The notes beneath the pieces were generated by a model. The model made no database searches. It saw only the letters and a list, made by a program, of their open reading frames with translations, and was not told the origin of the DNA. Source: Enterococcus columbae (GTDB lineage Bacteria > Bacillota > Bacilli > Lactobacillales > Enterococcaceae). Taken from it: a stretch of 64,000 bases of DNA. The position numbers and the translations under genes are program-made. The stretch covers positions 19,552-83,551 of the forward strand of contig DYWZ01000018.1 in assembly GCA_020742395.1 (NCBI GenBank), given 5' to 3'. Positions 1,106-13,010 of this stretch are shown here, piece by piece (position 1 is the first letter of the stretch; every line of letters begins with the position of its first letter).

Positions 1106-1444
1106 ATGATTAACATTTATGACACAGCGAATCAATTAGAGCGTGAATTACGCCAAACAGAACAATTCAAAGCTTTAAAAGCTGCTTTTGAAGAATTAAA
1201 GCAAAACGAAGCTGCCTATGCTCTGTTCAAAGAATTCCAAGCTTTCCAACAAGCGATGCAACAAAAAATGATGGCTGGCGAAGAAATGAGTGATGAGGAT
1301 GCGACTAAAGCGCAAAATCTAACAGAAAAAATTCAACAAGAAGCCTTAGTTTCAGCCTTAATGATGAAGGAACAGGCTTTCAGTCAACTAATTAATGAGC
1401 TAAACCGAATTGTTTTAGCTCCAGTTAACGAATTATATCAATAG
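1106..1444 (+). CDS. YlbF/YheA (DUF964) family regulator
   Basis: [17 protein letters not shown]-terminus, helical 112 aa, GGAGG RBS. Confidence 0.8.
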
Positions 1445-1471
1445 CCGATAATTCATTTGTAAACGAACGAG

Positions 1472-1510
1472 AATCCCTACAAACAATGATTCAAAATGTT
1501 TGTGGGGATT
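1472..1510 (+). terminator. Rho-independent terminator after the ylbF-like gene
   Basis: AATCCCTACAAACA / TGTTTGTGGGGATT stem followed by T run. Confidence 0.7.
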
Positions 1511-1531
1511 TTTTCATACCGACCAATATTG

Positions 1532-1596
1532 ATTCAGGAAGGATTTTTGCCATTTCAGGAAGTTTTTTCCTCCTTTCCTTAAGCATCTATTATGAT
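1532..1596 (+). promoter_or_regulatory. LytTR-activated promoter of the pheromone-kinase-regulator operon
   Basis: TTCAGGAA direct repeats at 1533-1540 and 1554-1561 (21-bp period); -10 TATGAT at 1591-1596. Confidence 0.75.
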
Positions 1597-1629
1597 AAGA
1601 GCATATCAATCATTGGAAGGATGAAGAAA

Positions 1630-1773
1630 ATGAAAAAAATGGATTTAAAATGGAAAAAATACTCAGAGAAAGAATTAATAAGGGTTATTGGTGGGAAAAA
1701 TGCGAAAGAAAAAGGAAAACCTGCTTCAAATTTAGCTCAATGTGTGTTTTCTTTTTTTAGAAAATGTGAATAG
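1630..1773 (+). CDS. Bacteriocin-inducing pheromone precursor, EntF-like (leader MKKMDLKWKKYSEKELIRVIGG; mature KNAKEKGKPASNLAQCVFSFFRKCE)
   Basis: GG leader; mature 25-mer shares GKPASNL..CVFS.F.KC with enterocin induction factor EntF (recalled); directly upstream of HK and RR; GGAAGG RBS. Confidence 0.9.
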   Translation: MKKMDLKWKKYSEKELIRVIGGKNAKEKGKPASNLAQCVFSFFRKCE

Positions 1774-1810
1774 AGTCAATTTTTAAATAAAATTAGGGAG
1801 AGAACTTTAA

Positions 1811-3109
1811 TTGTTAATAATTGATACTAAGGCTTATTTATTAAGAATGTTGCTAGGAGAATTTATTTTTGTTTATTTTTTTTATAAAATAAATAATAAA
1901 ATACAAAATAAACTATACTGGTTTATGATTTTAATGGTACTAGTTGAATTTTTTACAGGTTTATTTGTTTGGATTACAGAGTATATACCGATTATTTTTG
2001 GATATTATATTTTAAAAAAATCAAAAATTGAAAAAACATTAGCTATAAATAAAGTTTTGGTATGTTCATTATTAACATCTGCTACATTTATAATTAGCTC
2101 TACTCTAATAGATAATTGGCCATCATCTTATCATAAAGTTGGTTTTAGCTTTGTTTTTCAAAATCTTGGGATAGATTATTTACTAGCATTTATATTTATT
2201 TATTTATATAAGAGATTTGATATAGAAAGAATAATAGAAAAATATAGTTCAACATTAACAGTATTTTTGGAAATATACATTGTTATTGTTATTGAATTTA
2301 TTAGCTATACTGCTCATAAACGAGAGATTTTCGATCAATTTGTACTAGGTATTTTAATATTTTTGGTGCTTCAAACCCTTTTTGTTTCAGTTTTGGTTAT
2401 TTGGTTGACTATAAAGCAAAAAGAAAAATATGAACAAAAGGTAAAAGATAAGGAACTGATTTATCTAAAAAAATATACCGATTCTTTAGAAAAAGATCAG
2501 GAACAATCAGCCAGATTTAGACATGATTATAAAAATTTACTTCTAAGCTTGAAGGAACGCGCTACCCTTCATCAAGATTTAGCATTGAAGGAACAAATAG
2601 AATCACTGGAACATTACTCCCAGCCTTATTTAACCGATAAATTTGCCTATCGTTATTTAAAAAATGTGAAAAATGAATATGTTAAAAGTTTATTACTATC
2701 AAAAATGTATGAGGCAAGCCAACAATATATTCACTGCACCTTTGAATGTCCTAATGTGATTCAAAACATACCGATGGATATCTTTGATTTTGTGAGGGTT
2801 CTAGGTATTTTAATTGATAATGCGCTAGAAGCTGCGGAAGAAAGTGAACAAAAAGAGCTAGCCATTGCCATTTATCAGGATAAAGAACAAATGGAAATCT
2901 CTATCATTAATAGCTGCAATCAAGCTAAAAAATCGATTAACCAATTAACACAAAAAGGGGTTACCACCAAAAAAGGGCATAGTGGCTTAGGTTTATCGAA
3001 TATAGAAGAAATTAATAGAAAAAATGAAAATATGTTTGTCAATTATCAAATGGAAGCAGAACAATTCATTGCCCATGTTGTTCTTATAGCAAAAGAGGAG
3101 GACTTATGA
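1811..3109 (+). CDS. AgrC/EntK-type (GHKL) sensor histidine kinase
   Basis: Polytopic N-terminus, FRHDYKNLL H-box, ILIDNALEAA N-box, TKKGHSGLGL G-box. Confidence 0.93.
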   Translation: MLIIDTKAYLLRMLLGEFIFVYFFYKINNKIQNKLYWFMILMVLVEFFTGLFVWITEYIPIIFGYYILKKSKIEKTLAINKVLVCSLLTSATFIISSTLIDNWPSSYHKVGFSFVFQNLGIDYLLAFIFIYLYKRFDIERIIEKYSSTLTVFLEIYIVIVIEFISYTAHKREIFDQFVLGILIFLVLQTLFVSVLVIWLTIKQKEKYEQKVKDKELIYLKKYTDSLEKDQEQSARFRHDYKNLLLSLKERATLHQDLALKEQIESLEHYSQPYLTDKFAYRYLKNVKNEYVKSLLLSKMYEASQQYIHCTFECPNVIQNIPMDIFDFVRVLGILIDNALEAAEESEQKELAIAIYQDKEQMEISIINSCNQAKKSINQLTQKGVTTKKGHSGLGLSNIEEINRKNENMFVNYQMEAEQFIAHVVLIAKEEDL

Positions 3110-3855
3110 AATACCCAATTATTTTATGCGAAGATGACCTTTTACAATTACATCAGTTAGAAAGAGTGATTGATAAATTTATACTTTTCCATGATGAAAT
3201 CTTTGAAGTCGTGTTATCTGCGCAAAAACCTTCAGAAGTGGAGACTTATTTAAAACAATTTCATCCCAAGCAAGGCATTTATTTTTTAGATGTAGATTTA
3301 AAAGCAGAGATGGATGGAATGGAATTAGCGCAAATGATTCGAAAACATGATGTTCAGGCTAAAATTATTTTTGTAACTACTCATGATGAAGTACTACCGA
3401 TTACCTTCAAAAGAAAACTAGAAGCATTAGGTTTTGTTCAAAAAGACCAAGATTATGATGAATACAAAAAAGAAATTGTCGAATTATTATTGTTAGCGCA
3501 AGAAAGAATTGATGCAGCGAAAGTTTCAAAAAATCAAGCCTTTGTATTTTCGATAGGTTCACAAACCTTTACTTTTGACATCAATGACATTTATTTTTTA
3601 GAAGCTTCTCCTATGCCGCATCGCTTATCTTTGATCACTAAAAATGGTCAGTATGAATTTTATGGTAAATTAACCGATTTTGAGGAGAAATACGAAGCGC
3701 TGACTAGAATTAATCGTTCATGTTTAGCCAATCTGAAAAATGTTCAAAAAACTGACTTTAAAGCAAAAGAAGTCTATTTCACTGAAGAGGTCCATCGAAG
3801 CTTTTCATCATCAAAAACCAAGTCGATTAAAGCGTTTCTGAATACCATGTTTTAG
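3106..3855 (+). CDS. LytTR-family response regulator (EntR/AgrA/BlpR-type)
   Basis: CEDD, FLDVDL and IIFVTTH receiver motifs; C-terminal LytTR domain (FYGKL, RINRSCLANL). Confidence 0.93.
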   Translation: MKYPIILCEDDLLQLHQLERVIDKFILFHDEIFEVVLSAQKPSEVETYLKQFHPKQGIYFLDVDLKAEMDGMELAQMIRKHDVQAKIIFVTTHDEVLPITFKRKLEALGFVQKDQDYDEYKKEIVELLLLAQERIDAAKVSKNQAFVFSIGSQTFTFDINDIYFLEASPMPHRLSLITKNGQYEFYGKLTDFEEKYEALTRINRSCLANLKNVQKTDFKAKEVYFTEEVHRSFSSSKTKSIKAFLNTMF

Positions 3856-3949
3856 GATGCTTCCTTTATTCTTATACGTTAAAAGAATATTCAATGCTCA
3901 TTTGTTTTGGCTTGACTATTCTTTTTTTATTCCCTAAAATATTTTTTAT

Positions 3950-4144
3950 TTTTTTTGAGCGAATTTTGTCATTTTCCTCTAAACCCATAAAAAATCTCCC
4001 CAAAAATATTCCTGAACACCCACAAATCTATTCTTGAACGAAAAACTCAGAGAATGATATCTCTTAAAAGAAAGATTTTAAGCAGTTTAAGAACGATTTC
4101 CCCACTCGCTCAATGACTATGCAATAATATGATTGTCAAAGAGA
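3950..4144. repeat. Copy 1 of a ~195-bp duplicated promoter module
   Basis: Near-identical to 5287-5480; contains TTCCTGAA (4009) and TTCTTGAA (4031), TAAAAGAA/TTTAAGAA (4065/4086), and -10 AATAAT at 4123. Confidence 0.85.
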
Positions 4145-4173
4145 CAATACTATAGATAATGGAGGATTATATT

Positions 4174-4404
4174 ATGAAAACAAGAGAATTATTAACAGAA
4201 AAACAAATGAAGAGAGTTGTAGGAGGAGGTCCTGCAAAGAATTTTATTTATGGAATGGGCTAAGGTGCGATGGGAGGTGCTGGTTTAGGAGCTGCAATAT
4301 GTGCCCCGACAGGAGTAGCAGCTGGAGCTTGTGCTGTAGTAGGTGGCTTTTATGGTATGGCGTTAGGAGCATTAGCAGCAGGAATTGATACGTTTAAAAA
4401 GTAG
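4174..4404 (+). pseudogene. Class IIb bacteriocin alpha peptide (lactacin F LafA-like) with in-frame TAA at 4261-4263
   Basis: GGAGG RBS; MKTRELLTEKQMKRVVGG leader, then GPAKNFIYGMG*GAMGGAGLGAAICAPTGVAAGACAVVGGFYGMALGALAAGIDTFKK; absent from the ORF track. Confidence 0.85.
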
Positions 4405-4424
4405 AATCATTTAGAAGGAGAATA

Positions 4425-4637
4425 ATGATGGTAACAGTAAAAAAATATAAAAAATTAGTAAATAAAGAATTATCAAATATAACAGCTAGTGGTAAAGCTA
4501 TGAATACATTAGCGGGCGCTTTTACTGGAGCAACAACCGGAGTAAAGTACTGTACTCCTAGTGGACCATGGGCTATGGCTGGATGTGGTCTAGTAGGTGG
4601 TTTAGTAGGTGGTGTTATAGGATATAATGCTCCATAA
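4425..4637 (+). CDS. Class IIb bacteriocin beta peptide (LafX/GatX-like); leader ends in AS instead of GG
   Basis: GATTGVKYC..GPWAMAGCGLVGG..GG.IGY matches the LafX family pattern; leader KELSNITAS. Confidence 0.8.
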   Translation: MMVTVKKYKKLVNKELSNITASGKAMNTLAGAFTGATTGVKYCTPSGPWAMAGCGLVGGLVGGVIGYNAP

Positions 4638-4842
4638 GATAATAAAGTATTTACTTTTTTTAAAATTAGATAAATTAGATAAATTAGATATTTTTATAAT
4701 TTCTTATACTTTAATCGTTTTACTAGGATTATATAATCCTTTTAGTAACAAAGAACATTTTTTAACGTATTTATTTTTTGATTTATCAATACCGTTATTA
4801 ATAATGGTTGGGCTAATTCACAGTAAGAATAAATATAAATAA
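4627..4842 (+). CDS. Putative bacteriocin immunity membrane protein
   Basis: Small, hydrophobic, cationic; overlaps the bacteriocin stop; contains 3x AAATTAGAT. Confidence 0.6.
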   Translation: MLHKIIKYLLFLKLDKLDKLDIFIISYTLIVLLGLYNPFSNKEHFLTYLFFDLSIPLLIMVGLIHSKNKYK

Positions 4843-4847
4843 TAAAG

Positions 4848-4884
4848 TCAAACTCCTTGCTACCATTCAAGGAGTTTGATTTTT
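4848..4884 (+). terminator. Terminator of the bacteriocin operon
   Basis: TCAAACTCCTTG / CAAGGAGTTTGA stem plus T5. Confidence 0.85.
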
Positions 4885-4887
4885 ATG

Positions 4888-5180
4888 GTGTACCAAGTAT
4901 GGTGCACTTTCTTTCTGGTGTAAGTACAGACACGGGTATTTACTACCAAGTATAACGAATCACAAGCCGACAGCATTAGTGTCTAAGGGTAGAAAGCAGT
5001 ATAGCAAAGTCTACAATCCTGCGAACAGAAAATGAAAACAGGCTAATGGTGGATGAGATTGCTTAATAAATCGAAGTCTTGAAGGTAAATATAAAAACAA
5101 GACAGGTCGTGTGACGAAAGAATTATATCTTACCTTGGGAGATTCAGATAGCATGAATAATTTTAAGTGCGTCTCTATCA
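4888..5180 (+). mobile_element. Degenerate 5' fragment (domain I, part of II) of a group IIC intron; no RT ORF
   Basis: Starts GTGTACCAAGTATGGTGCA 8 nt after a terminator stem; contains CTGGTGTAAGTACAG, GGATGAGATTGC and GAAAG..TCTTACCTTGGGAG motifs like those of IIC introns (recalled). Confidence 0.65.
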
Positions 5181-5286
5181 GTAAAAATTTTTTAGAAATG
5201 ATGTTTCAGGGATTTTGAGTGATAACATACAAAATTGTTCAAAGTGGAGTTATATTTTATTAGCTAATACAGCATTTTATAAAAAA

Positions 5287-5480
5287 TTTTTTTGAGCGAA
5301 TTTTGGCAATTTTCCTCTAAATCCATAAAAACCCCCAAAAAGTATTCCTGAACACCCACAAATCTATTCTTGAATGAAATTTTCAAAGGACAGCATATCT
5401 TAAAAGAAGGATTTTATGCATTTTAAGAATGATTTTCCCACTCGCTCAATAACTATACAATAATATGATTGTCAACGAGA
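5287..5480. repeat. Copy 2 of the duplicated promoter module
   Basis: TTCCTGAA (5345), TTCTTGAA (5367), TAAAAGAA/TTTAAGAA (5401/5422), -10 AATAAT at 5459. Confidence 0.85.
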
Positions 5481-5505
5481 TAAATGTTTTGAAAGGAGAA
5501 CCAAA

Positions 5506-5628
5506 ATGGAAAAATATCAAAAATTAAATACCTATAAACTTGAAAGAGTTAATGGTGGAAACAATTTTTTACTAAATGCACTAAAAATCATACCTGTGCC
5601 AATTTTGTTTAGACCTAGAAAAAAATAA
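5506..5628 (+). CDS. Double-glycine peptide precursor MEKYQKLNTYKLERVNGG-NNFLLNALKIIPVPILFRPRKK (pheromone-like or antimicrobial)
   Basis: AAAGGAG RBS, canonical GG leader, downstream of promoter copy 2 and upstream of the exporter; below the ORF-track cutoff. Confidence 0.8.
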   Translation: MEKYQKLNTYKLERVNGGNNFLLNALKIIPVPILFRPRKK

Positions 5629-5734
5629 AGATTTTTGAAGGGAGTGATTACTATTTTTTATAAATTATTATCCATTATTAATCCTGGAATTAAATTTTGG
5701 TTTTAACAAATAAACTGTTTGAGGGAGACATGAA

Positions 5735-7888
5735 ATGAAATTCACTAAGAAACATTATAGACCACAAGTGGATATGCGTGATTGTGGCGTAGCTTCTCTA
5801 GCAATGATTTTTGGCTACTATGGTTCCTATTATTCCTTGGCAACACTAAGAGAAAAAGCCAAAACAAACTTGGAGGGTACCACCGCTTTAGGCTTAGTGA
5901 AAGTTGCTGAAGAATTGGGCTTTGAAACACAAGTCATTCAAGCGGACATGACATTGTTTGATGAGCCTGATATTCCTTATCCCTTTATTGCTCATGTTTT
6001 AAAAGAAGGTAAGTTACTCCATTATTATGTAGTTACAGGAGCAGATCAGCAATATATTTATATTGCTGATCCGGATCCTTTAGTTAAGATGACCAAGCTA
6101 ACTAGAGAAGCATTTGCTAAAGAGTGGTCAGGGGTTTCTTTATTTATGGCACCTACACCTGCATATCGACCACATAATGATAAAAAAGTAGGGCTTACGG
6201 CATTTATCCCTCTACTAACAAAACAAAAAGGATTAATTGCTAACATTGTACTGGCTACTTTACTTGTGACCATTATCAACATTACGGGTTCATATTATTT
6301 ACAATCGATTATTGATACCTATGTGCCTGATCAGATGAAAAATACTTTAGGAATTATTTCAATTGGTCTGTTAGTTGTTTATGTATTGCAACAAATTCTA
6401 TCTTATGGACAGGAATATTTGTTGATTATATTAGGACAGCGTTTATCTATTGATGTGATTTTATCCTATATCAAGCATGTTTTTCAATTACCTATGAATT
6501 TCTTTGCAACTAGAAGAACAGGAGAAATCATTTCTAGATTTAACGATGCAAATAATATTATTGATGCCTTAGCTAGTACGATTCTTTCTATCTTTTTAGA
6601 TGTATCGATTGTTTTAATCATTTCAGTCGTTTTATTCTTCCAAAGTTCGACGCTATTTTTTATTAGCTTATTGGCTTTACCGATTTATTCTGTCATTATT
6701 TTTGCTTTTATGAAGCCATTTGAAAAGATGAATAATGAAATGATGGAAGCTAATGCAATCCTTTCATCATCTATTATTGAAGATATTAATGGCATTGAAA
6801 CGATTAAATCTTTAACTAGTGAACATACTAGCTATCAAAAGGTAGATAGAGAATTTGTGTCATATCTAAAGAAGTCTTTCCGCTACGCTAAAACGGAAAG
6901 CATTCAAAAAGCATTGAAAAAGTTAGCGCAGCTACTCTTAAATGTTTTTGTATTATGGATGGGAGCTAGATTAGTGATGGATAATCAATTATCTATGGGG
7001 CAATTGATTACTTATAATACGCTACTTATCTATTTTACCAATCCATTAGAAAATATCATCAATTTACAAACCAAATTACAAACTGCTCACGTTGCCAATA
7101 ATCGTTTGAATGAAGTTTATCTTGTTAATTCAGAATTTGAAGATGAAAAAGCGATTAAAGAATTACCGGATACACCGTCAACGATTAGCTTTGAAAATGT
7201 AAGCTATAAATATGGTTATGGGAGAGACATTTTATCTGGAATTAATTTAGAAATTCCAATCTATAGTAAAGTTGCGATTGTTGGCATTTCTGGTTCAGGC
7301 AAAACTACCTTGGCTAAGATGATGGTTAACTTCTATGAAGCAAATACTGGAGAAGTGCGCTTAAATAGCACGAATATGAATCAAATAGATAAGACTGCCT
7401 TACGTCGTCATGTTAATTACTTACCGCAACAGCCTTATGTTTTCAATGGAACAATTCTAGAAAACTTACTATTGGGGGCTAAAGAGGGAACAACACAAGA
7501 AGATATTTTAAGAGCGGTAGAGATTGCTGAAATTCGTACGGATATTGAGAATATGCCCTTAAACTATCAAACAGAACTAACTTCTGATGGTGCTGGAATT
7601 TCTGGTGGACAGAAACAGAGAATTGCCTTAGCAAGAGCTTTACTCACTGATGCACCGATATTAATTTTGGACGAAGCAACGAGTAGTTTGGATATTCTAA
7701 CCGAGAAGAAAATTATTGATAATTTAATGAAACTAGACAAAACAATTATCTTTATTGCACATCGATTAACAATTGCAGAAAAATCAGAACAAGTGATTGT
7801 ACTTGATCAAGGAAAATTAATTGAACAAGGCACACACGAAGAGTTATTAGCTCATCAAGGCTTTTATTATGATTTAGTGAATTATTAG
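5735..7888 (+). CDS. Peptidase-containing ABC transporter (C39 + TMD + NBD), ComA/BlpA-like
   Basis: QVDMRDCG catalytic Cys, LLHYYVV His, GISGSGKT Walker A, ISGGQKQR, LDEATS. Confidence 0.95.
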   Translation: MKFTKKHYRPQVDMRDCGVASLAMIFGYYGSYYSLATLREKAKTNLEGTTALGLVKVAEELGFETQVIQADMTLFDEPDIPYPFIAHVLKEGKLLHYYVVTGADQQYIYIADPDPLVKMTKLTREAFAKEWSGVSLFMAPTPAYRPHNDKKVGLTAFIPLLTKQKGLIANIVLATLLVTIINITGSYYLQSIIDTYVPDQMKNTLGIISIGLLVVYVLQQILSYGQEYLLIILGQRLSIDVILSYIKHVFQLPMNFFATRRTGEIISRFNDANNIIDALASTILSIFLDVSIVLIISVVLFFQSSTLFFISLLALPIYSVIIFAFMKPFEKMNNEMMEANAILSSSIIEDINGIETIKSLTSEHTSYQKVDREFVSYLKKSFRYAKTESIQKALKKLAQLLLNVFVLWMGARLVMDNQLSMGQLITYNTLLIYFTNPLENIINLQTKLQTAHVANNRLNEVYLVNSEFEDEKAIKELPDTPSTISFENVSYKYGYGRDILSGINLEIPIYSKVAIVGISGSGKTTLAKMMVNFYEANTGEVRLNSTNMNQIDKTALRRHVNYLPQQPYVFNGTILENLLLGAKEGTTQEDILRAVEIAEIRTDIENMPLNYQTELTSDGAGISGGQKQRIALARALLTDAPILILDEATSSLDILTEKKIIDNLMKLDKTIIFIAHRLTIAEKSEQVIVLDQGKLIEQGTHEELLAHQGFYYDLVNY

Positions 7889-7900
7889 GAGGAAAAATAC

Positions 7901-9247
7901 TTGGATCCACGCTATTTTGAAAGTGCCGAATTTTATCATCGTCGGTATGATAATTTTGCTAGCAAAATTATTATCCCTACCTTTTGCCTCTTTTGCTTTC
8001 TAGTAGTTTTTGCAATCTTTGCCACAAAAGAAGTCGTGGTATCTTCTACTGGTAGCATTGAAGCCTATCGTACAATTACTAATATTCAATCAACTAGTAG
8101 TAACAAAATCATTCTTAATCATCTGAAAGAAAATAAGCAAGTTAAAAAAGGCGATTTATTATTAGAATATCAGGGAAAGGAAGGCGAAATTCAGCTTTCC
8201 ACCTTACAATTGCAACAAAAACAAATAAAAGAACAAATCGATCAAATACAAATTTTATTAGATAGTTTGAATAAAGAAAAAAATTTATTTGAAGATAATG
8301 ATGCATTTGGCTATAAGCAAACCTACTTAGATTATGTTCAGCAAGTAGAGACTATTAAAAAGAGTGTTCAGCAACAAAATGCTAATATTCAAGCACAAAA
8401 TATCTCTGCAAGTCAGGCAAAGCAGGCTATTCAAAACGCTATGAATGAATTGCAAAACGAACTCAATGATTACCAGCAAGCTAAACAAGCGATACTTAAT
8501 CAAACAGCGTTAAATAAGCAAAATGCTGCATATACTTTATATCAAAGTTATCATCAACAAATGGGACAAGAAAATGCTGATAGTATCAAACAGCAGGTAT
8601 TATCACAACTTGATAGTCAAATTGCAAGTCTTGAGAATAGTTTATCAGGATATAAAATTCAATATGCTTCCTCAGGAGTTCAGCAAGCAGCGAGTGATAC
8701 ATTTGCTAATCAATCAGCTTCATTGAAAGCACAAACTATTGCAAAAACGGAGCAAGAAAAACAATCCTTACAAAAACAGTTAACCGAAGTAGAGAATAAT
8801 CTACAATTACAACAGCAACAAGGAAAATTAAATCGGATTTACGCGCAGACTGGTGGAGTTTTACATATTGTGGATACTGATAATGAATTTGTATCACCGG
8901 GAACAGTCATTGCGCAATTATATCCTATTATTACAAAAGTGAAAAGGATTAAACTAGTGTCTTATATTTCTGCTAGAGATGTCACCCATATTCAAAAAGG
9001 AATGAAGATGCGCTTTACAGCCTATGATAGTGCTAAAGACAAATTAGTATTAGAAGCAAAGGTACAAAGTATAGATACTAGTGCTACTAGAACGAAACAA
9101 GGAAACTATTTTAAAGTAGAATCATTGGTTTCCGTCAATGAGTTACAAGCAAAACAGTTATCTTATGGTTTAGAGGGGAGAGTTACACTTATTACACATA
9201 CAACCACCTATCTGAACTATTTTTTAGATAAAATATTTAATTTGTAG
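7901..9247 (+). CDS. Bacteriocin secretion accessory protein (ComB/BlpB/MesE, HlyD-like)
   Basis: ESAEFY.RRY.NF N-terminus, IQSTSSNKII, long coiled coil. Confidence 0.92.
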   Translation: MDPRYFESAEFYHRRYDNFASKIIIPTFCLFCFLVVFAIFATKEVVVSSTGSIEAYRTITNIQSTSSNKIILNHLKENKQVKKGDLLLEYQGKEGEIQLSTLQLQQKQIKEQIDQIQILLDSLNKEKNLFEDNDAFGYKQTYLDYVQQVETIKKSVQQQNANIQAQNISASQAKQAIQNAMNELQNELNDYQQAKQAILNQTALNKQNAAYTLYQSYHQQMGQENADSIKQQVLSQLDSQIASLENSLSGYKIQYASSGVQQAASDTFANQSASLKAQTIAKTEQEKQSLQKQLTEVENNLQLQQQQGKLNRIYAQTGGVLHIVDTDNEFVSPGTVIAQLYPIITKVKRIKLVSYISARDVTHIQKGMKMRFTAYDSAKDKLVLEAKVQSIDTSATRTKQGNYFKVESLVSVNELQAKQLSYGLEGRVTLITHTTTYLNYFLDKIFNL

Positions 9248-9260
9248 GAGGAAAGAAGTA

Positions 9261-9770
9261 ATGAAGAAGAGAAAATTTGTAACAGCAGTAGTAGCGTTAC
9301 TGTTGTCCTTAGCCTTTTCATCAATCGGTGTTCAGGCAGATGAAACACCCAACAATAATCCAGTAGAGGAAACAGCAGTTATTCCCAAAGTAAGTCAGAA
9401 AGAGTATTTGACTAATGTAGCTGACCTGTCTCCAATTACTACACAAGAATTCAGAAATAGTTTGCTAGAGAGTAGTATAAATGACGAATATATCTATATT
9501 GGTCGTGAAACATGTTACTATTGCAGACAATTCTCACCAGTGATTAAAGAATTTAACTTAATGATAAATCAACAATTGAAGTATTATAACACAGATTCGG
9601 ATACTTTTGGAGAAGAAGATGCTGAGTTTATTTTTAATGAAATTGGTATTCCTGGAACACCAACAATCTTGCACATTATTAATGGAAAAATTGTAGCTGG
9701 TTGGATTGGTGGAGGAGTTGATGCTAATCAATTAAAAACATTTTTTGATGAACATTTAACATTGAATTAA
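9261..9770 (+). CDS. Exported thioredoxin-like bacteriocin transport accessory protein (Bta/BlpG-like)
   Basis: Signal peptide, YIGRETCYYCRQF (CxxC), PGTPT. Confidence 0.85.
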   Translation: MKKRKFVTAVVALLLSLAFSSIGVQADETPNNNPVEETAVIPKVSQKEYLTNVADLSPITTQEFRNSLLESSINDEYIYIGRETCYYCRQFSPVIKEFNLMINQQLKYYNTDSDTFGEEDAEFIFNEIGIPGTPTILHIINGKIVAGWIGGGVDANQLKTFFDEHLTLN

Positions 9771-9786
9771 ATTGCTGTTTAAGTAA

Positions 9787-10035
9787 TTAAAAAAATATAC
9801 AAATAGAGAAAGCTACGGGGGTATAGTAAAAAAAGATTGTTTAAGTGATAATGGTTTTAATACATTAGAATATGCAATCATAGGAGAAATATCTGGCGCA
9901 ACATTGGGAGTGGGGATTGGAAATCGTGCAGTAGCATTTACTGTTGTATCCCCCCTAGCTTATCTATTAGGGAAAATTCATTCATTTCTTTCCTTCCTGA
10001 CTTTGAATGTAAGTTTTATTAGGAGTTATCGCTGA
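9787..10035 (+). pseudogene. Decayed double-glycine bacteriocin frame (brochocin A/thermophilin A-like), no usable start codon
   Basis: LKKYTNRESYGG-IVKKDCLSDNGFNTLEYAIIGEISGATLGVGIG; the KDCL.D.G motif recalls BrcA/ThmA; TAA just upstream in frame. Confidence 0.45.
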
Positions 10036-10179
10036 ATAGAGCAGGGCTAAGATTCTATTTATAGTTTTATCACTGATAAGTTATATAATATTCGATTTTT
10101 TATTGCAATGTGGTCAAGTGATTATTAGTAATTTTGTAAGTAAGAAAATCGATTTAAATATAGGTGGTAATAGTATTTA

Positions 10180-10210
10180 TTGAAATTTTTGAAAAACTTG
10201 TAAAGTGCTA
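10180..10210 (+). repeat. Left arm of perfect 31-bp inverted repeat
   Basis: TTGAAATTTTTGAAAAACTTGTAAAGTGCTA; exact reverse complement at 10659-10689. Confidence 0.95.
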
Positions 10211-10253
10211 TTAGGTAATAATAAAACGATATTTTTAGAGGAGCGTTTTCTGT

Positions 10254-10439
10254 ATGAAAAAATATCTACAATATGGTTGGGTGGCTATATTATTCTCTAT
10301 GGGAATATATAATATTTTTAATCCATCGACATTTGATAAAAATATCTGTAATTTAATAGGGTTATTATTGATAATCTTTGCAGTAGGAATGAACTTAAGA
10401 AAAAGGAAAGGTGATTTTAATGAACATGGAGAATATTAA
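10254..10439 (+). CDS. Putative immunity membrane peptide (2 TM)
   Basis: GAGGAG RBS, hydrophobic with cationic tail, overlaps the bacteriocin start. Confidence 0.65.
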   Translation: MKKYLQYGWVAILFSMGIYNIFNPSTFDKNICNLIGLLLIIFAVGMNLRKRKGDFNEHGEY

Positions 10440-10596
10440 AATGTTAGATTCAAAAGAATTAGAAAGTATTTATGGAGGGACAAATTGGACAAAGTGCTAT
10501 GCAGGAACAATTGGTTCAGCTATATTAGGTTTTGGTGCTATGGGTCCAATTGGATATTGGGCTGGTGCTGGTGTAGGATATGCTAGCTTTTGTTAA
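10420..10596 (+). CDS. Class II double-glycine bacteriocin; mature TNWTKCYAGTIGSAILGFGAMGPIGYWAGAGVGYASFC (38 aa)
   Basis: AAGGTGA RBS, leader MNMENIKMLDSKELESIYGG, GxxxG-rich with Cys6/Cys38. Confidence 0.88.
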   Translation: MNMENIKMLDSKELESIYGGTNWTKCYAGTIGSAILGFGAMGPIGYWAGAGVGYASFC

Positions 10597-10658
10597 TTTG
10601 TAAATTATTGTATAGAATCAAAGACGATTCTACATCTTAACAAATGCCTTGCAATTTT

Positions 10659-10689
10659 TAGCACTTTACAAGTTTTTCAAAAATTTCAA
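10659..10689 (-). repeat. Right arm of perfect 31-bp inverted repeat
   Basis: TAGCACTTTACAAGTTTTTCAAAAATTTCAA. Confidence 0.95.
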
Positions 10690-10820
10690 GTAAAAATTAG
10701 AATTCCACATTCTTTCTAATAGGATAATTTTTCAGCAGATTTGTATCTAAAAAATCATCCATTAGACTGATTTGGCTGGCTGTTGCAATCGATAACGATT
10801 ACTTAAAGAAGGTGTCAAAT

Positions 10821-11141
10821 ATGAAAGCGATTTATAAAGATGGAGAAGTTGCAGAGGTTTGGGAAATTAGTCGAACCAGCGAACGACCTGATTGGGTGAT
10901 TGAGGGCTTTAAAAAGAATTATCTAGTGTGGGTGGATAACAAGTTAAGAATTCTTTTAACTGGATTGAACCCATCAACTAAAGAAATGTTAAAGCTAGGC
11001 TCGATGGGTTCGGCTGGCGGTGGCGGATTCCTTGGCTATGCGATGTATTCAATAGGCTATGAAGGAGACATTATTGACTTCACACATCGCCGATTGATTT
11101 CAAAAAAGAGATTTTTAAAAGAATATACGGTAATTTCTTGA
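10821..11141 (+). CDS. Hypothetical protein
   Basis: AAGAAGGTG RBS, clean ORF; function not recognised. Confidence 0.65.
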   Translation: MKAIYKDGEVAEVWEISRTSERPDWVIEGFKKNYLVWVDNKLRILLTGLNPSTKEMLKLGSMGSAGGGGFLGYAMYSIGYEGDIIDFTHRRLISKKRFLKEYTVIS

Positions 11142-11202
11142 GATAAAGAACTGCTATCTGAATATTCGGGGGTAGCAGTTTATTTTCCCAATACAATCTG
11201 TG

Positions 11203-11269
11203 TTTCAGGAAGAAAAAATGACGGTTCAGGAATACTTTCACTACGATTAGTTGTTTTGTGGGATACTAT
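11203..11269 (+). promoter_or_regulatory. LytTR-activated promoter
   Basis: TTCAGGAA at 11204-11211 and 11225-11232 (21-bp period), TACTAT at 11264. Confidence 0.7.
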
Positions 11270-11317
11270 TTTTAGTTAATATTGATTCAGAAGTGTTTTG
11301 GGAAAGGATAGTATTAG

Positions 11318-11506
11318 ATGAAAAAGAGGAATGATTTTGCTCAGATGTCAAAAAAATTTCAATGGGCGGTACTAATCGTAGGGTTAATTGCGTTTTTTAT
11401 ATTGCAGCGTTGGTTAGTCAATGCAGTGGATCAATTAATAATGGATGCGGTAAATCATCTGGATCAAGTGGTAGCTGGTTTTGCTCAGGGGTGGGCGAAT
11501 GGCTGA
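11318..11506 (+). CDS. Small single-TM protein, putative immunity factor
   Basis: AAAGGA RBS; one hydrophobic segment; downstream of LytTR boxes. Confidence 0.65.
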   Translation: MKKRNDFAQMSKKFQWAVLIVGLIAFFILQRWLVNAVDQLIMDAVNHLDQVVAGFAQGWANG

Positions 11507-11718
11507 TTATCAATAGCTAAATGAATTTTATTGAGAGTGAGTCAGGAAGTTATTTTCCTGGCTTTTTTAGTGTAGTCAGCTACCTTTGTTTAACGATGAG
11601 GTTATTTGATTATTACTTGCTGTAAAAAAATAAAATCAGTCAATTATTGCGTATTTTGATATTGAGCTAGACTAGTTGTGAGGATTCAGTTAAACTTAAG
11701 CCAAATTTTACAAAAAAG

Positions 11719-11732
11719 CGAACAAATTTTCG
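11719..11732. promoter_or_regulatory. LexA (SOS/Cheo) box upstream of yhaO-yhaN-yhaM
   Basis: CGAACAAATTTTCG, 1 mismatch to CGAAC-N4-GTTCG. Confidence 0.55.
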
Positions 11733-11837
11733 TATAAAAAATGCTATTTTAGCCATAACATGTTATGATAGAAGCAGTAGAAAAGTCAGATATATGTAAG
11801 ACTTTCGCTAATTTCGTTCAGAGAGGGTAGATGATCG

Positions 11838-13010
11838 GTGCGATTTTTACATTGTGCAGATTTACATATTGATCGAGCTTTTGAAGGGTTACCAGAAAGC
11901 ATTACGATGCAAAATCAGCTCATGCAGGCCAATGAGCAGACGTTACAAAATATTGTTGAGTTGGCTTTAGCTGAGCAGGTAGATGCTGTATTGCTGGTGG
12001 GCGATACCTTTCATCAAAATATTCCTAGTTTATATATTCAGCATCAATTCAATCAACAGATGCAAAGATTAGCGCAGGCAGAGATTCCAGTGTTTTTGAG
12101 CTTTGGTAATCATGATTATTATACACCAGAGCGATATTGGTTTACTTTTCCTGATAATGTATATGTGTTTACGAGTGAAGCGGTACAAACCTTTACGCTA
12201 CAAACCAAAAGTGGCAAGACCTATGCGGTGAGCGGGTTTAGCTATGAGCATCCTTGGCTAGAAAAAGAGATGGTTGCAGCTTTTCCTACACGAATGGCGG
12301 TCGATTATCATATCGGTTTATATCATGGACAGCAAACAGGAAAACGTTATGCGCCTTTTCAGTTAACGAGTTTGAAACAAAAGGGCTATGATTATTGGGC
12401 GCTAGGGCATATTCATGTGCCTACTATATTATCGGAGCAAAAGCCAGTGATTCTCTACCCGGGTTGTCCACAGGGGCATACTAGAAAAGAGCAGCAGACC
12501 AGTGTAGTTTTGGCAGAACTAACTGCTCAAACTTGTCGATATGAAAAAAGGCAGGTCGCAAGTTTACCTTTTAAGCAAGTGACGCTTTCTTTAAAAGAGG
12601 TGCTAGAACAAAAGGAAGTGCCTCAGTTTTTAATGCAAGCTTTTGAGAGAGTAGCGGATGGTTTGTATCAGGTCGTTTTTACCGATACGCAAACCTTACC
12701 TAGCCAGTGGTTGCATACAGCTAATAAGGAAGATTTATTGCAACATTGTAATTGGCAATTTGCCCAACAAAAAAGAAAGGTTTATATCTATGATTGTTTA
12801 GAACAAGCGACTAACACGACGGTTTATCCGTTATTGGATCAAGCTAGTTATCAAGATTTAACAACTGCAAGTCATCAAGAAACTATGAGTCAGTTATTAG
12901 CCCAACGTTTAGGGACTTCTTTACATTTACATCAGTGGGCGATGGAAAATTTTGATGAGATTTATCAAGGGTATCTTGAGGAATTAAAAAAATATCTTAA
13001 ATCAACCTAG
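11838..13010 (+). CDS. yhaO: Mre11/SbcD-like metallophosphoesterase (YhaO)
   Basis: ADLHID, GDTF, GNHD and GHIH motifs. Confidence 0.88.
   Translation: MRFLHCADLHIDRAFEGLPESITMQNQLMQANEQTLQNIVELALAEQVDAVLLVGDTFHQNIPSLYIQHQFNQQMQRLAQAEIPVFLSFGNHDYYTPERYWFTFPDNVYVFTSEAVQTFTLQTKSGKTYAVSGFSYEHPWLEKEMVAAFPTRMAVDYHIGLYHGQQTGKRYAPFQLTSLKQKGYDYWALGHIHVPTILSEQKPVILYPGCPQGHTRKEQQTSVVLAELTAQTCRYEKRQVASLPFKQVTLSLKEVLEQKEVPQFLMQAFERVADGLYQVVFTDTQTLPSQWLHTANKEDLLQHCNWQFAQQKRKVYIYDCLEQATNTTVYPLLDQASYQDLTTASHQETMSQLLAQRLGTSLHLHQWAMENFDEIYQGYLEELKKYLKST

Follow-up and report, generated by a model that had tools for sequence, protein, structure and literature searches.

What kind of locus lies between the ylbF-like and yhaO-like genes of Enterococcus columbae? 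The question is raised by an AT-rich block at 1.5–11.5 kb of a 64,000-nucleotide stretch of contig DYWZ01000018.1 (the window, here and below), which an earlier note described as an inserted, mosaic and possibly undescribed multi-bacteriocin island under quorum-sensing control. We consider it likely that the region is a chromosomal, recombinant and partly decayed class II bacteriocin cluster governed by a three-component peptide-pheromone circuit, a mechanism that we assign by homology. Regulation, export, immunity and one bacteriocin (pepC) appear to remain, and the cell is probably a signaller and an immune strain that makes at most one toxin.

Every gene between 1.1 and 15.7 kb lies on the forward strand, and the GC content is 0.21–0.35 within the block versus 0.35–0.45 in its flanks. 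All components listed in the earlier note are present: an operon of pheromone, histidine kinase and LytTR regulator, an exporter with its accessory protein, a CxxC protein, and three small membrane proteins (4627–4842, 10254–10439 and 11318–11506). Of double-glycine-type precursors, of which it counted at least five, five are found: the pheromone, pepA, pepB, pep40 and pepC, but pepA contains a TAA codon and pepB has Ala-Ser at its processing site. With two toxin peptides that look disabled and a further one reduced to a remnant, the term ‘multi-bacteriocin’ overstates what the locus holds.

The regulatory operon begins with a pheromone (induction factor) gene at 1621..1773, whose start may instead be at 1630 or 1639. 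The precursor scores 67.5 bits against NCBIfam NF033383 (EntF family; cutoff 35) and 49.7 bits against Pfam DUF5841, in agreement with the EntF type proposed earlier. Its leader ends in ELIRVIGG, followed by a predicted mature 25-mer, KNAKEKGKPASNLAQCVFSFFRKCE. Directly downstream are an AgrC/HPK10-like sensor kinase (1811..3109; HATPase_c_5, 6e-14) and a LytTR response regulator (3106..3855; Response_reg and LytTR domains). The AgrC and AgrA models match the kinase and regulator over their full lengths, yet under the equivalog cutoffs. The kinase is 66–84% identical to homologs in the genus, 42–47% to those of EntF-type loci in enterococcal and neighbouring families, and ∼31% to those of Streptococcus; together, kinase and regulator are closest to enterococcal EntFKR-type systems.

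The kinase is itself a mosaic. Its middle part is 97% identical to that of a near-complete genome of the same genus (G001), and its C-terminus is 97–99% identical to a plasmid-borne type described below, as is the whole regulator. Among six alleles, each of which has its own mature pheromone, the kinase sensor (residues 1–200) is 45–74% identical, and the kinase C-terminus is 96–99% identical among the five alleles other than that of G001 (∼62%). By these comparisons, pheromone and kinase sensor form a private pherotype, in a pherotype system like those of the agr, com and blp loci. The corresponding pheromone gene of G001 (locus L031, opposite window position 1650) has an otherwise identical leader with one extra A in an A-run, which shifts the frame, and its mature peptide is very different and lacks cysteines. 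The extra A could be a pseudogene mutation, phase variation or a sequencing error.

Much of the locus has close relatives on plasmids. Positions 1613–9246 are colinear, at 86% DNA identity, with the Enterococcus cecorum plasmids CP144497.1 and CP144501.1 (pEC65) and with many chicken-gut contigs; both plasmids are complete, come from chickens, and match at 86.8% identity over 74% of the query. In the PGAP annotation their genes appear as ‘EntF family bacteriocin induction factor’, ‘bacteriocin’ and ‘comA’. Contigs recovered through relatives of pep40 also contain this cluster, and there its neighbours are resolvase, relaxase, NikA-like and primase genes. Searches of the literature yielded no description of a bacteriocin cluster from E. 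cecorum, and the related clusters have machine annotation only. The system is thus not an unseen one, as the earlier note had thought possible: it stands close to machine-annotated, apparently unstudied E. cecorum plasmid clusters, with no experimental description found.

Sliding DNA identity resolves the locus into segments with sharp breakpoints. Up to position 1600 it is 98–100% identical to G001; at 1601–2400 this identity falls to 55–72%, the collapse coinciding exactly with the boundary between pheromone leader and mature peptide, and at 2401–2800 it returns to 95–98%. Leader and promoter are those of the resident chromosomal allele seen in G001. Against the plasmid type, identity is 54–74% at 1601–2600 (pheromone and kinase sensor), 98–100% at 2800–3800 (kinase C-terminus and regulator), 95–100% at 4200–5800 (pepA to pep40), 81–91% over the ABC (ATP-binding cassette) exporter gene and 66–76% at the end of the accessory gene. 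The modules also differ in their wider affinities. An EntF-type locus in the same family (genome G300) has a regulator 60% identical to that of the window, a kinase 42%, a pheromone 57%, an ABC exporter 47% and an accessory protein 27%, and the corresponding values for Streptococcus azizii are 78% for the exporter, 41% for the accessory protein, 29% for the kinase and 32% for the regulator. These discordant affinities show that the modules do not share a single history. The mosaic character proposed earlier stands, and the single phylogeny of all modules that was to refute it is not what is seen. The locus was built by recombination and combines a resident chromosomal allele, a plasmid-type cluster and an exporter of ComAB lineage with a private pherotype.

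The exporter operon is headed by pep40 (5506..5628), which encodes a 40-aa precursor with a double-glycine leader and a 22-aa cationic peptide, NNFLLNALKIIPVPILFRPRKK. It is followed by a ComA-type C39 peptidase/ABC exporter (5735..7888) that scores 1112 bits against TIGR01193 (cutoff 524) and contains Pfam C39 (1e-41), ABC_membrane and ABC_tran domains. The exporter aligns without gaps over 716 residues to Streptococcus pneumoniae ComA (PDB 8HF7; 1239 bits), and the catalytic residues Q11, C17, H96 and D112 are retained in that alignment. In a comparison set of 400 genomes of the order, its best outside matches are all from Streptococcus (73–79%), and exporters of its own family are 44–48% identical, with one at 65%. 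The genus of the best matches can be named as Streptococcus because one of the matching loci is 94.7% identical in DNA to Streptococcus pseudopneumoniae. Four sampled species of the same genus contain no match at E 1e-100 or better. Nearer copies occur in three contigs from metagenome-assembled genomes (95% identical), and Streptococcus timonensis, S. pseudopneumoniae and S. azizii have copies at 77–79%.

The ComB-type accessory protein (7901..9247; TIGR01000, 429 bits, cutoff 259) is 74% identical to that of the plasmid type; its best outside matches are Streptococcus ComB proteins (41–43%), and its own family has none at 1e-40. Both proteins belong to the streptococcal ComAB lineage, a resemblance that the earlier note had pointed out. 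The operon continues with a PedC/BrcD-like, thioredoxin-like CxxC (C-Y-Y-C) protein (9261..9770) that has an N-terminal signal-like segment and is predicted to be secreted. It scores 73.7 bits against TIGR01295, under the cutoff of 120, and 23.0 bits against Pfam Thioredoxin, just under the gathering threshold. A protein 71% identical to it is encoded in locus L038.

Downstream of the regulator, the toxin genes are eroded. pepA (4174..4404), a LafA-like class IIb peptide gene, is interrupted by an in-frame TAA at 4261–4263; codon 30 is CAA (Gln) in its relatives, including the plasmid copies. In contigs from public sequencing runs the base at this site is C in runs X1, X2 and X4, and T in runs X28, X29, X31 and X32, which come from other studies. 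A sequencing error was rejected because T is also present in these four runs, and the nonsense allele is real and circulating. pepB (4425..4637) is a LafX-like gene in which Ala-Ser occupies positions –2 and –1, aligned to the Gly-Gly of LafX and of the Enterococcus faecalis homolog. This substitution is present in all plasmid-type copies, for which reason we rejected a recent private mutation. The pair thus does not consist of two intact adjacent precursors, each with a Gly-Gly site. In peptidase-containing ABC transporters (PCATs) the cleft is described as so narrow that it admits only Gly-Gly, and a peptide must be cleaved to be secreted (PMC6959990). Given the nonsense codon in pepA and the replaced Gly-Gly in pepB, the lactacin F-like pair in this copy is most likely dead.

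The kinship of this pair to lactacin F is uneven. Over 58 residues pepB and LafX share 47% identity (E 4e-16), and they have their Cys spacing and a GxxxG-rich tail in common; the match of pepA to LafA is weak, confined to a short core (14 of 29 residues, E 2e-4). The LafA and LafX sequences used are both found without a mismatch in two genomes of a genus resembling Lactobacillus (g25), which makes the comparison valid. Neither peptide reaches a Pfam or NCBIfam cutoff. The likeness to lactacin F claimed earlier therefore holds for pepB as a LafX homolog, but the nearest relatives are enterococcal (65–73%) and not from Lactobacillus: pepB is 65% identical to an E. faecalis ‘Blp family class II bacteriocin’ and 71–73% to proteins in genomes of its own family, and pepA is 55% identical to the E. 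faecalis partner peptide. Each of these relatives of pepB has a leader that closes with Gly-Gly.

Immediately behind the pair, the gene at 4627..4842 encodes a 71-aa protein with two transmembrane (TM) segments, a putative immunity protein by position and hydrophobicity. It matches no Pfam or NCBIfam family and is 94–100% identical in all related clusters. In genomes G003 (L070, 6225–6449) and G006 (L071, 11355–11579) a deletion between shared GTAGGTGG repeats has produced a pepA::pepB hybrid open reading frame (ORF). These fused loci lie elsewhere in the genome, have a 100% identical immunity gene and contain no exporter match at E 1e-100 or better. Across these copies the pair is eroding by several independent routes while the immunity protein is retained. 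A further pepA/pepB-like pair, in E. faecalis (L075–L078), is found on a small integrative element with Rep_trans, a Tn916-type Xis and an integrase, whose insertion site varies from one E. faecalis genome to another. Its cargo comprises an ABC-C39 exporter (65%), a non-EntF pheromone, a kinase (26%), a regulator (28%) and a homolog of mem61 (see below), and is a further case of module shuffling.

pepC (10420..10596) is the only bacteriocin candidate that looks intact from its sequence. Its leader ends in the double-glycine motif ELESIYGG, its predicted mature peptide is TNWTKCYAGTIGSAILGFGAMGPIGYWAGAGVGYASFC (with Cys6 and Cys38), and it scores 39.8 bits against Pfam Bacteriocin_IIc (gathering threshold 27.1). 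Its relatives are 66–80% identical and unnamed. The overlapping upstream gene mem61 (10254..10439) encodes a 61-aa two-TM protein, a putative immunity protein by homology: the ORF preceding the E. faecalis pepA/pepB-like pair is 70% identical to it, and an ORF that follows a pepC homolog is 36% identical. That homolog is succeeded by this 61-aa protein and by a PedC-like thioredoxin protein (45% identical to the one in the window), beside a BlpAB-like exporter, a neighbourhood that supports a unit of toxin, immunity protein and disulfide helper. Terminator prediction found none between the thioredoxin gene and pepC, which makes read-through from the exporter operon plausible.

How might these genes be controlled? 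A position weight matrix (PWM) was built from the obvious repeats in the locus and scanned over the whole 1.9-Mb assembly. It finds four strong LytTR box pairs, all within the locus; recovering the boxes from which the matrix was derived is circular, and the informative part is that no further pair occurs elsewhere. The paired 10-bp boxes have the consensus TTCAGGAAG/T and a pitch of 21–22 bp. Two strong pairs point forward: the direct repeat ATTCAGGAAG, 11 nt, TTTCAGGAAG upstream of the pheromone operon (1532..1562), and a pair at 11203..11233, the best of the locus, which is conserved in G001 and precedes a small gene, orf62. The other two are reversed, and both lie in a ∼200-bp promoter module present in two copies (direct repeat D1/D4; 85% identical) ahead of pepA and pep40. 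Copy 1 (3950..4147) has strong minus-strand boxes at 4039–4008 and weak forward boxes at 4064–4094; copy 2 (5287..5483) has them at 5375–5344 and 5400–5430, respectively. In both modules the weak forward boxes have the geometry of the pheromone promoter. All related loci, among them distant EntF-type loci of other genera, show the same box consensus and orientations, which argues that the boxes are real regulatory elements.

The reversed strong pairs (4008–4039 and 5344–5375) keep their orientation in all plasmid-type copies. Leftward transcription from copy 1 would be antisense to the regulator operon, and that from copy 2 would stop at the bidirectional intrinsic terminator predicted at 4848..4879, after the pepA-pepB-immunity operon. 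As a conjecture of low probability, antisense RNA might be made from these boxes in response to pheromone and dampen the circuit.

From these parts the following mechanism can be proposed. The ComA-type C39-ABC pump, together with its ComB-type partner, would cleave the EntF-family precursor behind Gly-Gly and export it, and the thioredoxin-like protein would probably close the Cys-Cys bridges of exported peptides. The mature 25-mer would be sensed by the multi-pass kinase, which would phosphorylate the LytTR regulator. Bound to the paired 10-bp boxes, the regulator would switch on the pheromone-kinase-regulator operon (autoinduction) and orf62, as well as the pepA-pepB-immunity operon and the operon of pep40, exporter, accessory protein and thioredoxin-like protein. 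Transcription of the last would probably read through to mem61 and pepC.

Several observations weigh against this account. In each promoter module the strongest boxes face away from the gene that follows, pepA or pep40, and the forward ones are weak, so that induction of these two operons is something we infer. The PWM scan finds no box pair upstream of mem61-pepC. RNA support for the locus was sought in sequencing runs; no RNA run contains it, and the best run held at most 53% of the sampled words. No independent contig was found to span the left junction (1523–1760). Finally, the Ala-Ser of pepB is kept in every plasmid-type copy and so is perhaps tolerated rather than disabling.

This last point bears on whether the cell could still be a fully functional multi-bacteriocin producer, in which all five peptides are made and pepA and pepB are active despite the TAA and Ala-Ser. 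Immunity gene, regulator and exporter are intact, the conservation of Ala-Ser could mean that it is processed, and pepA has an ATG of its own at 4270, beyond the stop. However, the TAA cuts the leader from the hydrophobic core of pepA and leaves a downstream ORF lacking an export signal, the PCAT cleft is specific for Gly-Gly (PMC6959990), and the pair decays independently in relatives (the pepA::pepB fusions of G003 and G006); we regard full production as distinctly unlikely. The erosion of three toxin genes could suggest the opposite extreme, a pure eavesdropping and immunity locus that senses pheromone and protects itself with no active toxin. This ‘cheater’ state is described for blpA-defective pneumococci. 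G001, G003 and G006 keep kinase, regulator and immunity gene with no exporter match at E 1e-100 or better, and the missing box pair before pepC would fit. Here, though, the exporter is intact, as are the accessory protein, the thioredoxin-like protein and pepC; the last belongs to Pfam Bacteriocin_IIc and adjoins a membrane partner; and no terminator is predicted between pepC and the thioredoxin gene. A locus devoid of active toxin is on balance unlikely, if somewhat less so than full production.

The remaining concern is the assembly. A plasmid-borne cluster could have been joined to the chromosome artificially through the shared leader and promoter sequence: the genome is a draft of 106 contigs (90% complete), closely related clusters are plasmid-borne, and contigs of other runs end near 1523–1632. 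Yet the segment of pheromone and sensor matches neither the plasmid type nor G001 (54–74%), and G001 has a diverged pheromone-kinase-regulator set together with thioredoxin and immunity gene fragments at the same site. A contig of run X1 spans 8973–10561, and the right-hand part of the locus (thioredoxin gene, remnant and cassette) is missing from the plasmids. We therefore judge a chimera to be very improbable, the least probable of these three alternatives, and favour a partly decayed chromosomal cluster that retains its circuit, its pump and pepC.

How did such a cluster come to lie at this site? The left flank is a core ylbF-like gene (1106..1444; Pfam Com_YlbF, 1e-25) whose product is 100% identical to that of G001, preceded by the C-terminus of a penicillin-binding protein (PBP). 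The right flank is a core gene for a yhaO-like SbcD/Mre11-type phosphoesterase (11838..13010; Metallophos, 1e-16). The flanks were said to be normally adjacent. This is so at family level, where PBP, YlbF, YhaO and YhaN are contiguous in 12 of 29 relatives' loci, with YhaO directly after YlbF; but within the genus every interval compared is occupied, with sizes of 2.4 to 18 kb. The interval of G005 (2.4 kb) holds a homolog of orf109 as its sole content, that of G003 (8.4 kb) a different LytTR two-component system, and that of G007 measures 18 kb. In G001 the interval contains the diverged pheromone-kinase-regulator set (62–68%), pieces of the thioredoxin and immunity genes and another two-component system, and lacks an exporter. 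A second LytTR two-component system, unrelated to the first (∼30% identity), is found in the intervals of G001, G003, G007 and G006 (L031, L032, L034 and L036) and is absent from the window.

No integrase, transposase, att site or target duplication was found at the borders, and 1445–11800 contains no such gene. At its borders the locus is homologous to both the resident allele and the plasmid type, which indicates homologous recombination. We therefore rejected integrase-mediated insertion. The ylbF-yhaO interval is a recombination hot spot in the genus and not a site of site-specific insertion. In place of the inserted island of the earlier note, the locus is better called an allele replacement at a pre-existing, occupied quorum-sensing and bacteriocin hot spot.

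The E. cecorum plasmid clusters are the closest known likeness. They share the order of pheromone, kinase, regulator, pepA, pepB, immunity gene, intron fragment, pep40, comA-type exporter and accessory gene, and are near at the protein level (pepB 99%, ABC exporter 95%, immunity protein 94–100%). They differ in having another pherotype (pheromone 51–53%, kinase sensor 57%), an intact pepA (CAA), a plasmid location with relaxase, resolvase and primase flanks, no thioredoxin gene and other peptides after the accessory gene. EntF/EntK/EntR-type three-component regulation is known from the enterocin A locus of Enterococcus faecium and, as CbnS/K/R, from Carnobacterium. The window resembles these in its EntF-family pheromone with two Cys near the C-terminus, its AgrC-like kinase, its LytTR regulator and its paired direct repeats, whereas the EntF-type locus of G300 has an exporter and accessory protein only 47% and 27% identical and other bacteriocins.

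S. pneumoniae ComAB (PDB 8HF4–8HF7) is the model for the pump, with mitis-group ComA 78–79% and ComB 41–43% identical, and is a promiscuous exporter of double-glycine peptides (PMC6016807). Unlike it, the window has no comCDE or competence context and couples the pump to an EntF-type circuit and pep40, in an enterococcus. The genome encodes a single HPK10 kinase, which is the EntK-like protein of this locus. With no comCDE partner and a pheromone of EntF type, the pump would be ComA-like in its working and not a competence component. With the pneumococcal blp locus the window shares pherotype polymorphism in pheromone and kinase sensor, a variable bacteriocin and immunity region, frequent loss-of-function alleles with immunity kept, and recombination at a fixed chromosomal site (PMC6016807); it differs in its pheromone family and regulator lineage (∼30% identity) and in exchanging with plasmids. 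Lactacin F (LafA/LafX, Lactobacillus johnsonii group) is clearly matched by pepB and weakly by pepA, and differs in that pepA is interrupted here, pepB lacks Gly-Gly, and nearer relatives of the pair are enterococcal.

The E. cecorum group, which includes gut commensals and a poultry pathogen, thus carries a blp-like, pherotype-polymorphic bacteriocin and quorum-sensing locus that shuttles between plasmids and a fixed chromosomal hot spot, with an exporter of almost the same design as pneumococcal ComAB. It offers a tractable system for studying the rewiring of modules from different genera, strain competition in the chicken gut, and the way in which toxin genes are lost repeatedly but immunity and signalling persist. 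Together with pepC and pep40, the intact pepA and pepB alleles of the plasmids are uncharacterised candidates for new antimicrobial or signalling specificities.

For pep40, one such specificity can be sketched. A search among 5.8 billion proteins returned only relatives that are 83–95% identical and unnamed, and in related clusters the gene always lies just upstream of the exporter. It is conserved, heads the exporter operon, has no relatives outside this cluster type and encodes a 22-residue cationic product ending in RKK. For these reasons pep40 might be a second, orphan signal and not a toxin: a peptide resembling competence-stimulating peptide that travels with the captured ComAB pump and acts on the kinases of other strains or species, in cross-talk or interference. 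We offer this as a speculation of low probability.

Between the pepA-pepB-immunity operon and pep40 lies a decayed 5′ fragment of a group II intron (4880..5129), which scores 31.2 bits against Rfam RF02001 at 4969–5129 (gathering threshold 32). The fragment is conserved in plasmid-type clusters. Contig C56 of the same genome ends in a better copy, which shares 80% identity with the fragment and reaches 56.1 bits; this contig-end copy suggests a multi-copy intron that breaks the assembly.

At the right end, a sixth peptide gene survives as a 5′-truncated double-glycine remnant at 9787..10035. Its translation has no start codon, runs from SYGG into IVKKDCLSDNG, and resembles an intact YSDKDCL peptide encoded after the thioredoxin gene in L038. 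Next to it, mem61 and pepC are bracketed by a perfect 31-nt inverted repeat (10180..10689; arms 10180–10210 and 10659–10689). G001 has a diverged form of the sequence that holds the right arm, so that the left arm appears to be a duplicate of native sequence in inverted orientation. An exact scan found no other copy of the arm in the genome and none in JGI metagenome contigs. One bird-gut run contains a G001-like form that lacks pepC. Simple inversion of a pepC-immunity-thioredoxin unit as the source of the cassette order was rejected because all its genes are on the same strand.

Two small genes complete the interval. orf62 (11318..11506) encodes a single-TM protein that is 100% identical in G001, has no family match and no double-glycine leader, and is followed by a terminator at 11539–11564; with the best box pair of the locus upstream, it is a probable regulon member. 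orf109 (10821..11141) is native to the interval and conserved throughout the genus, with 98% identity in G001 and 55% at the same site in G002–G007. It matches no known family and has no TM segment. We considered it as part of the plasmid cluster and rejected this because the 108-aa plasmid ORF is unrelated. In a genome of another family (G031; L073, 6301–6600) a 41% identical homolog is preceded by a LytTR box pair and is oriented divergently to a pheromone gene of EntF type, and orf109 may belong functionally to these regulons.

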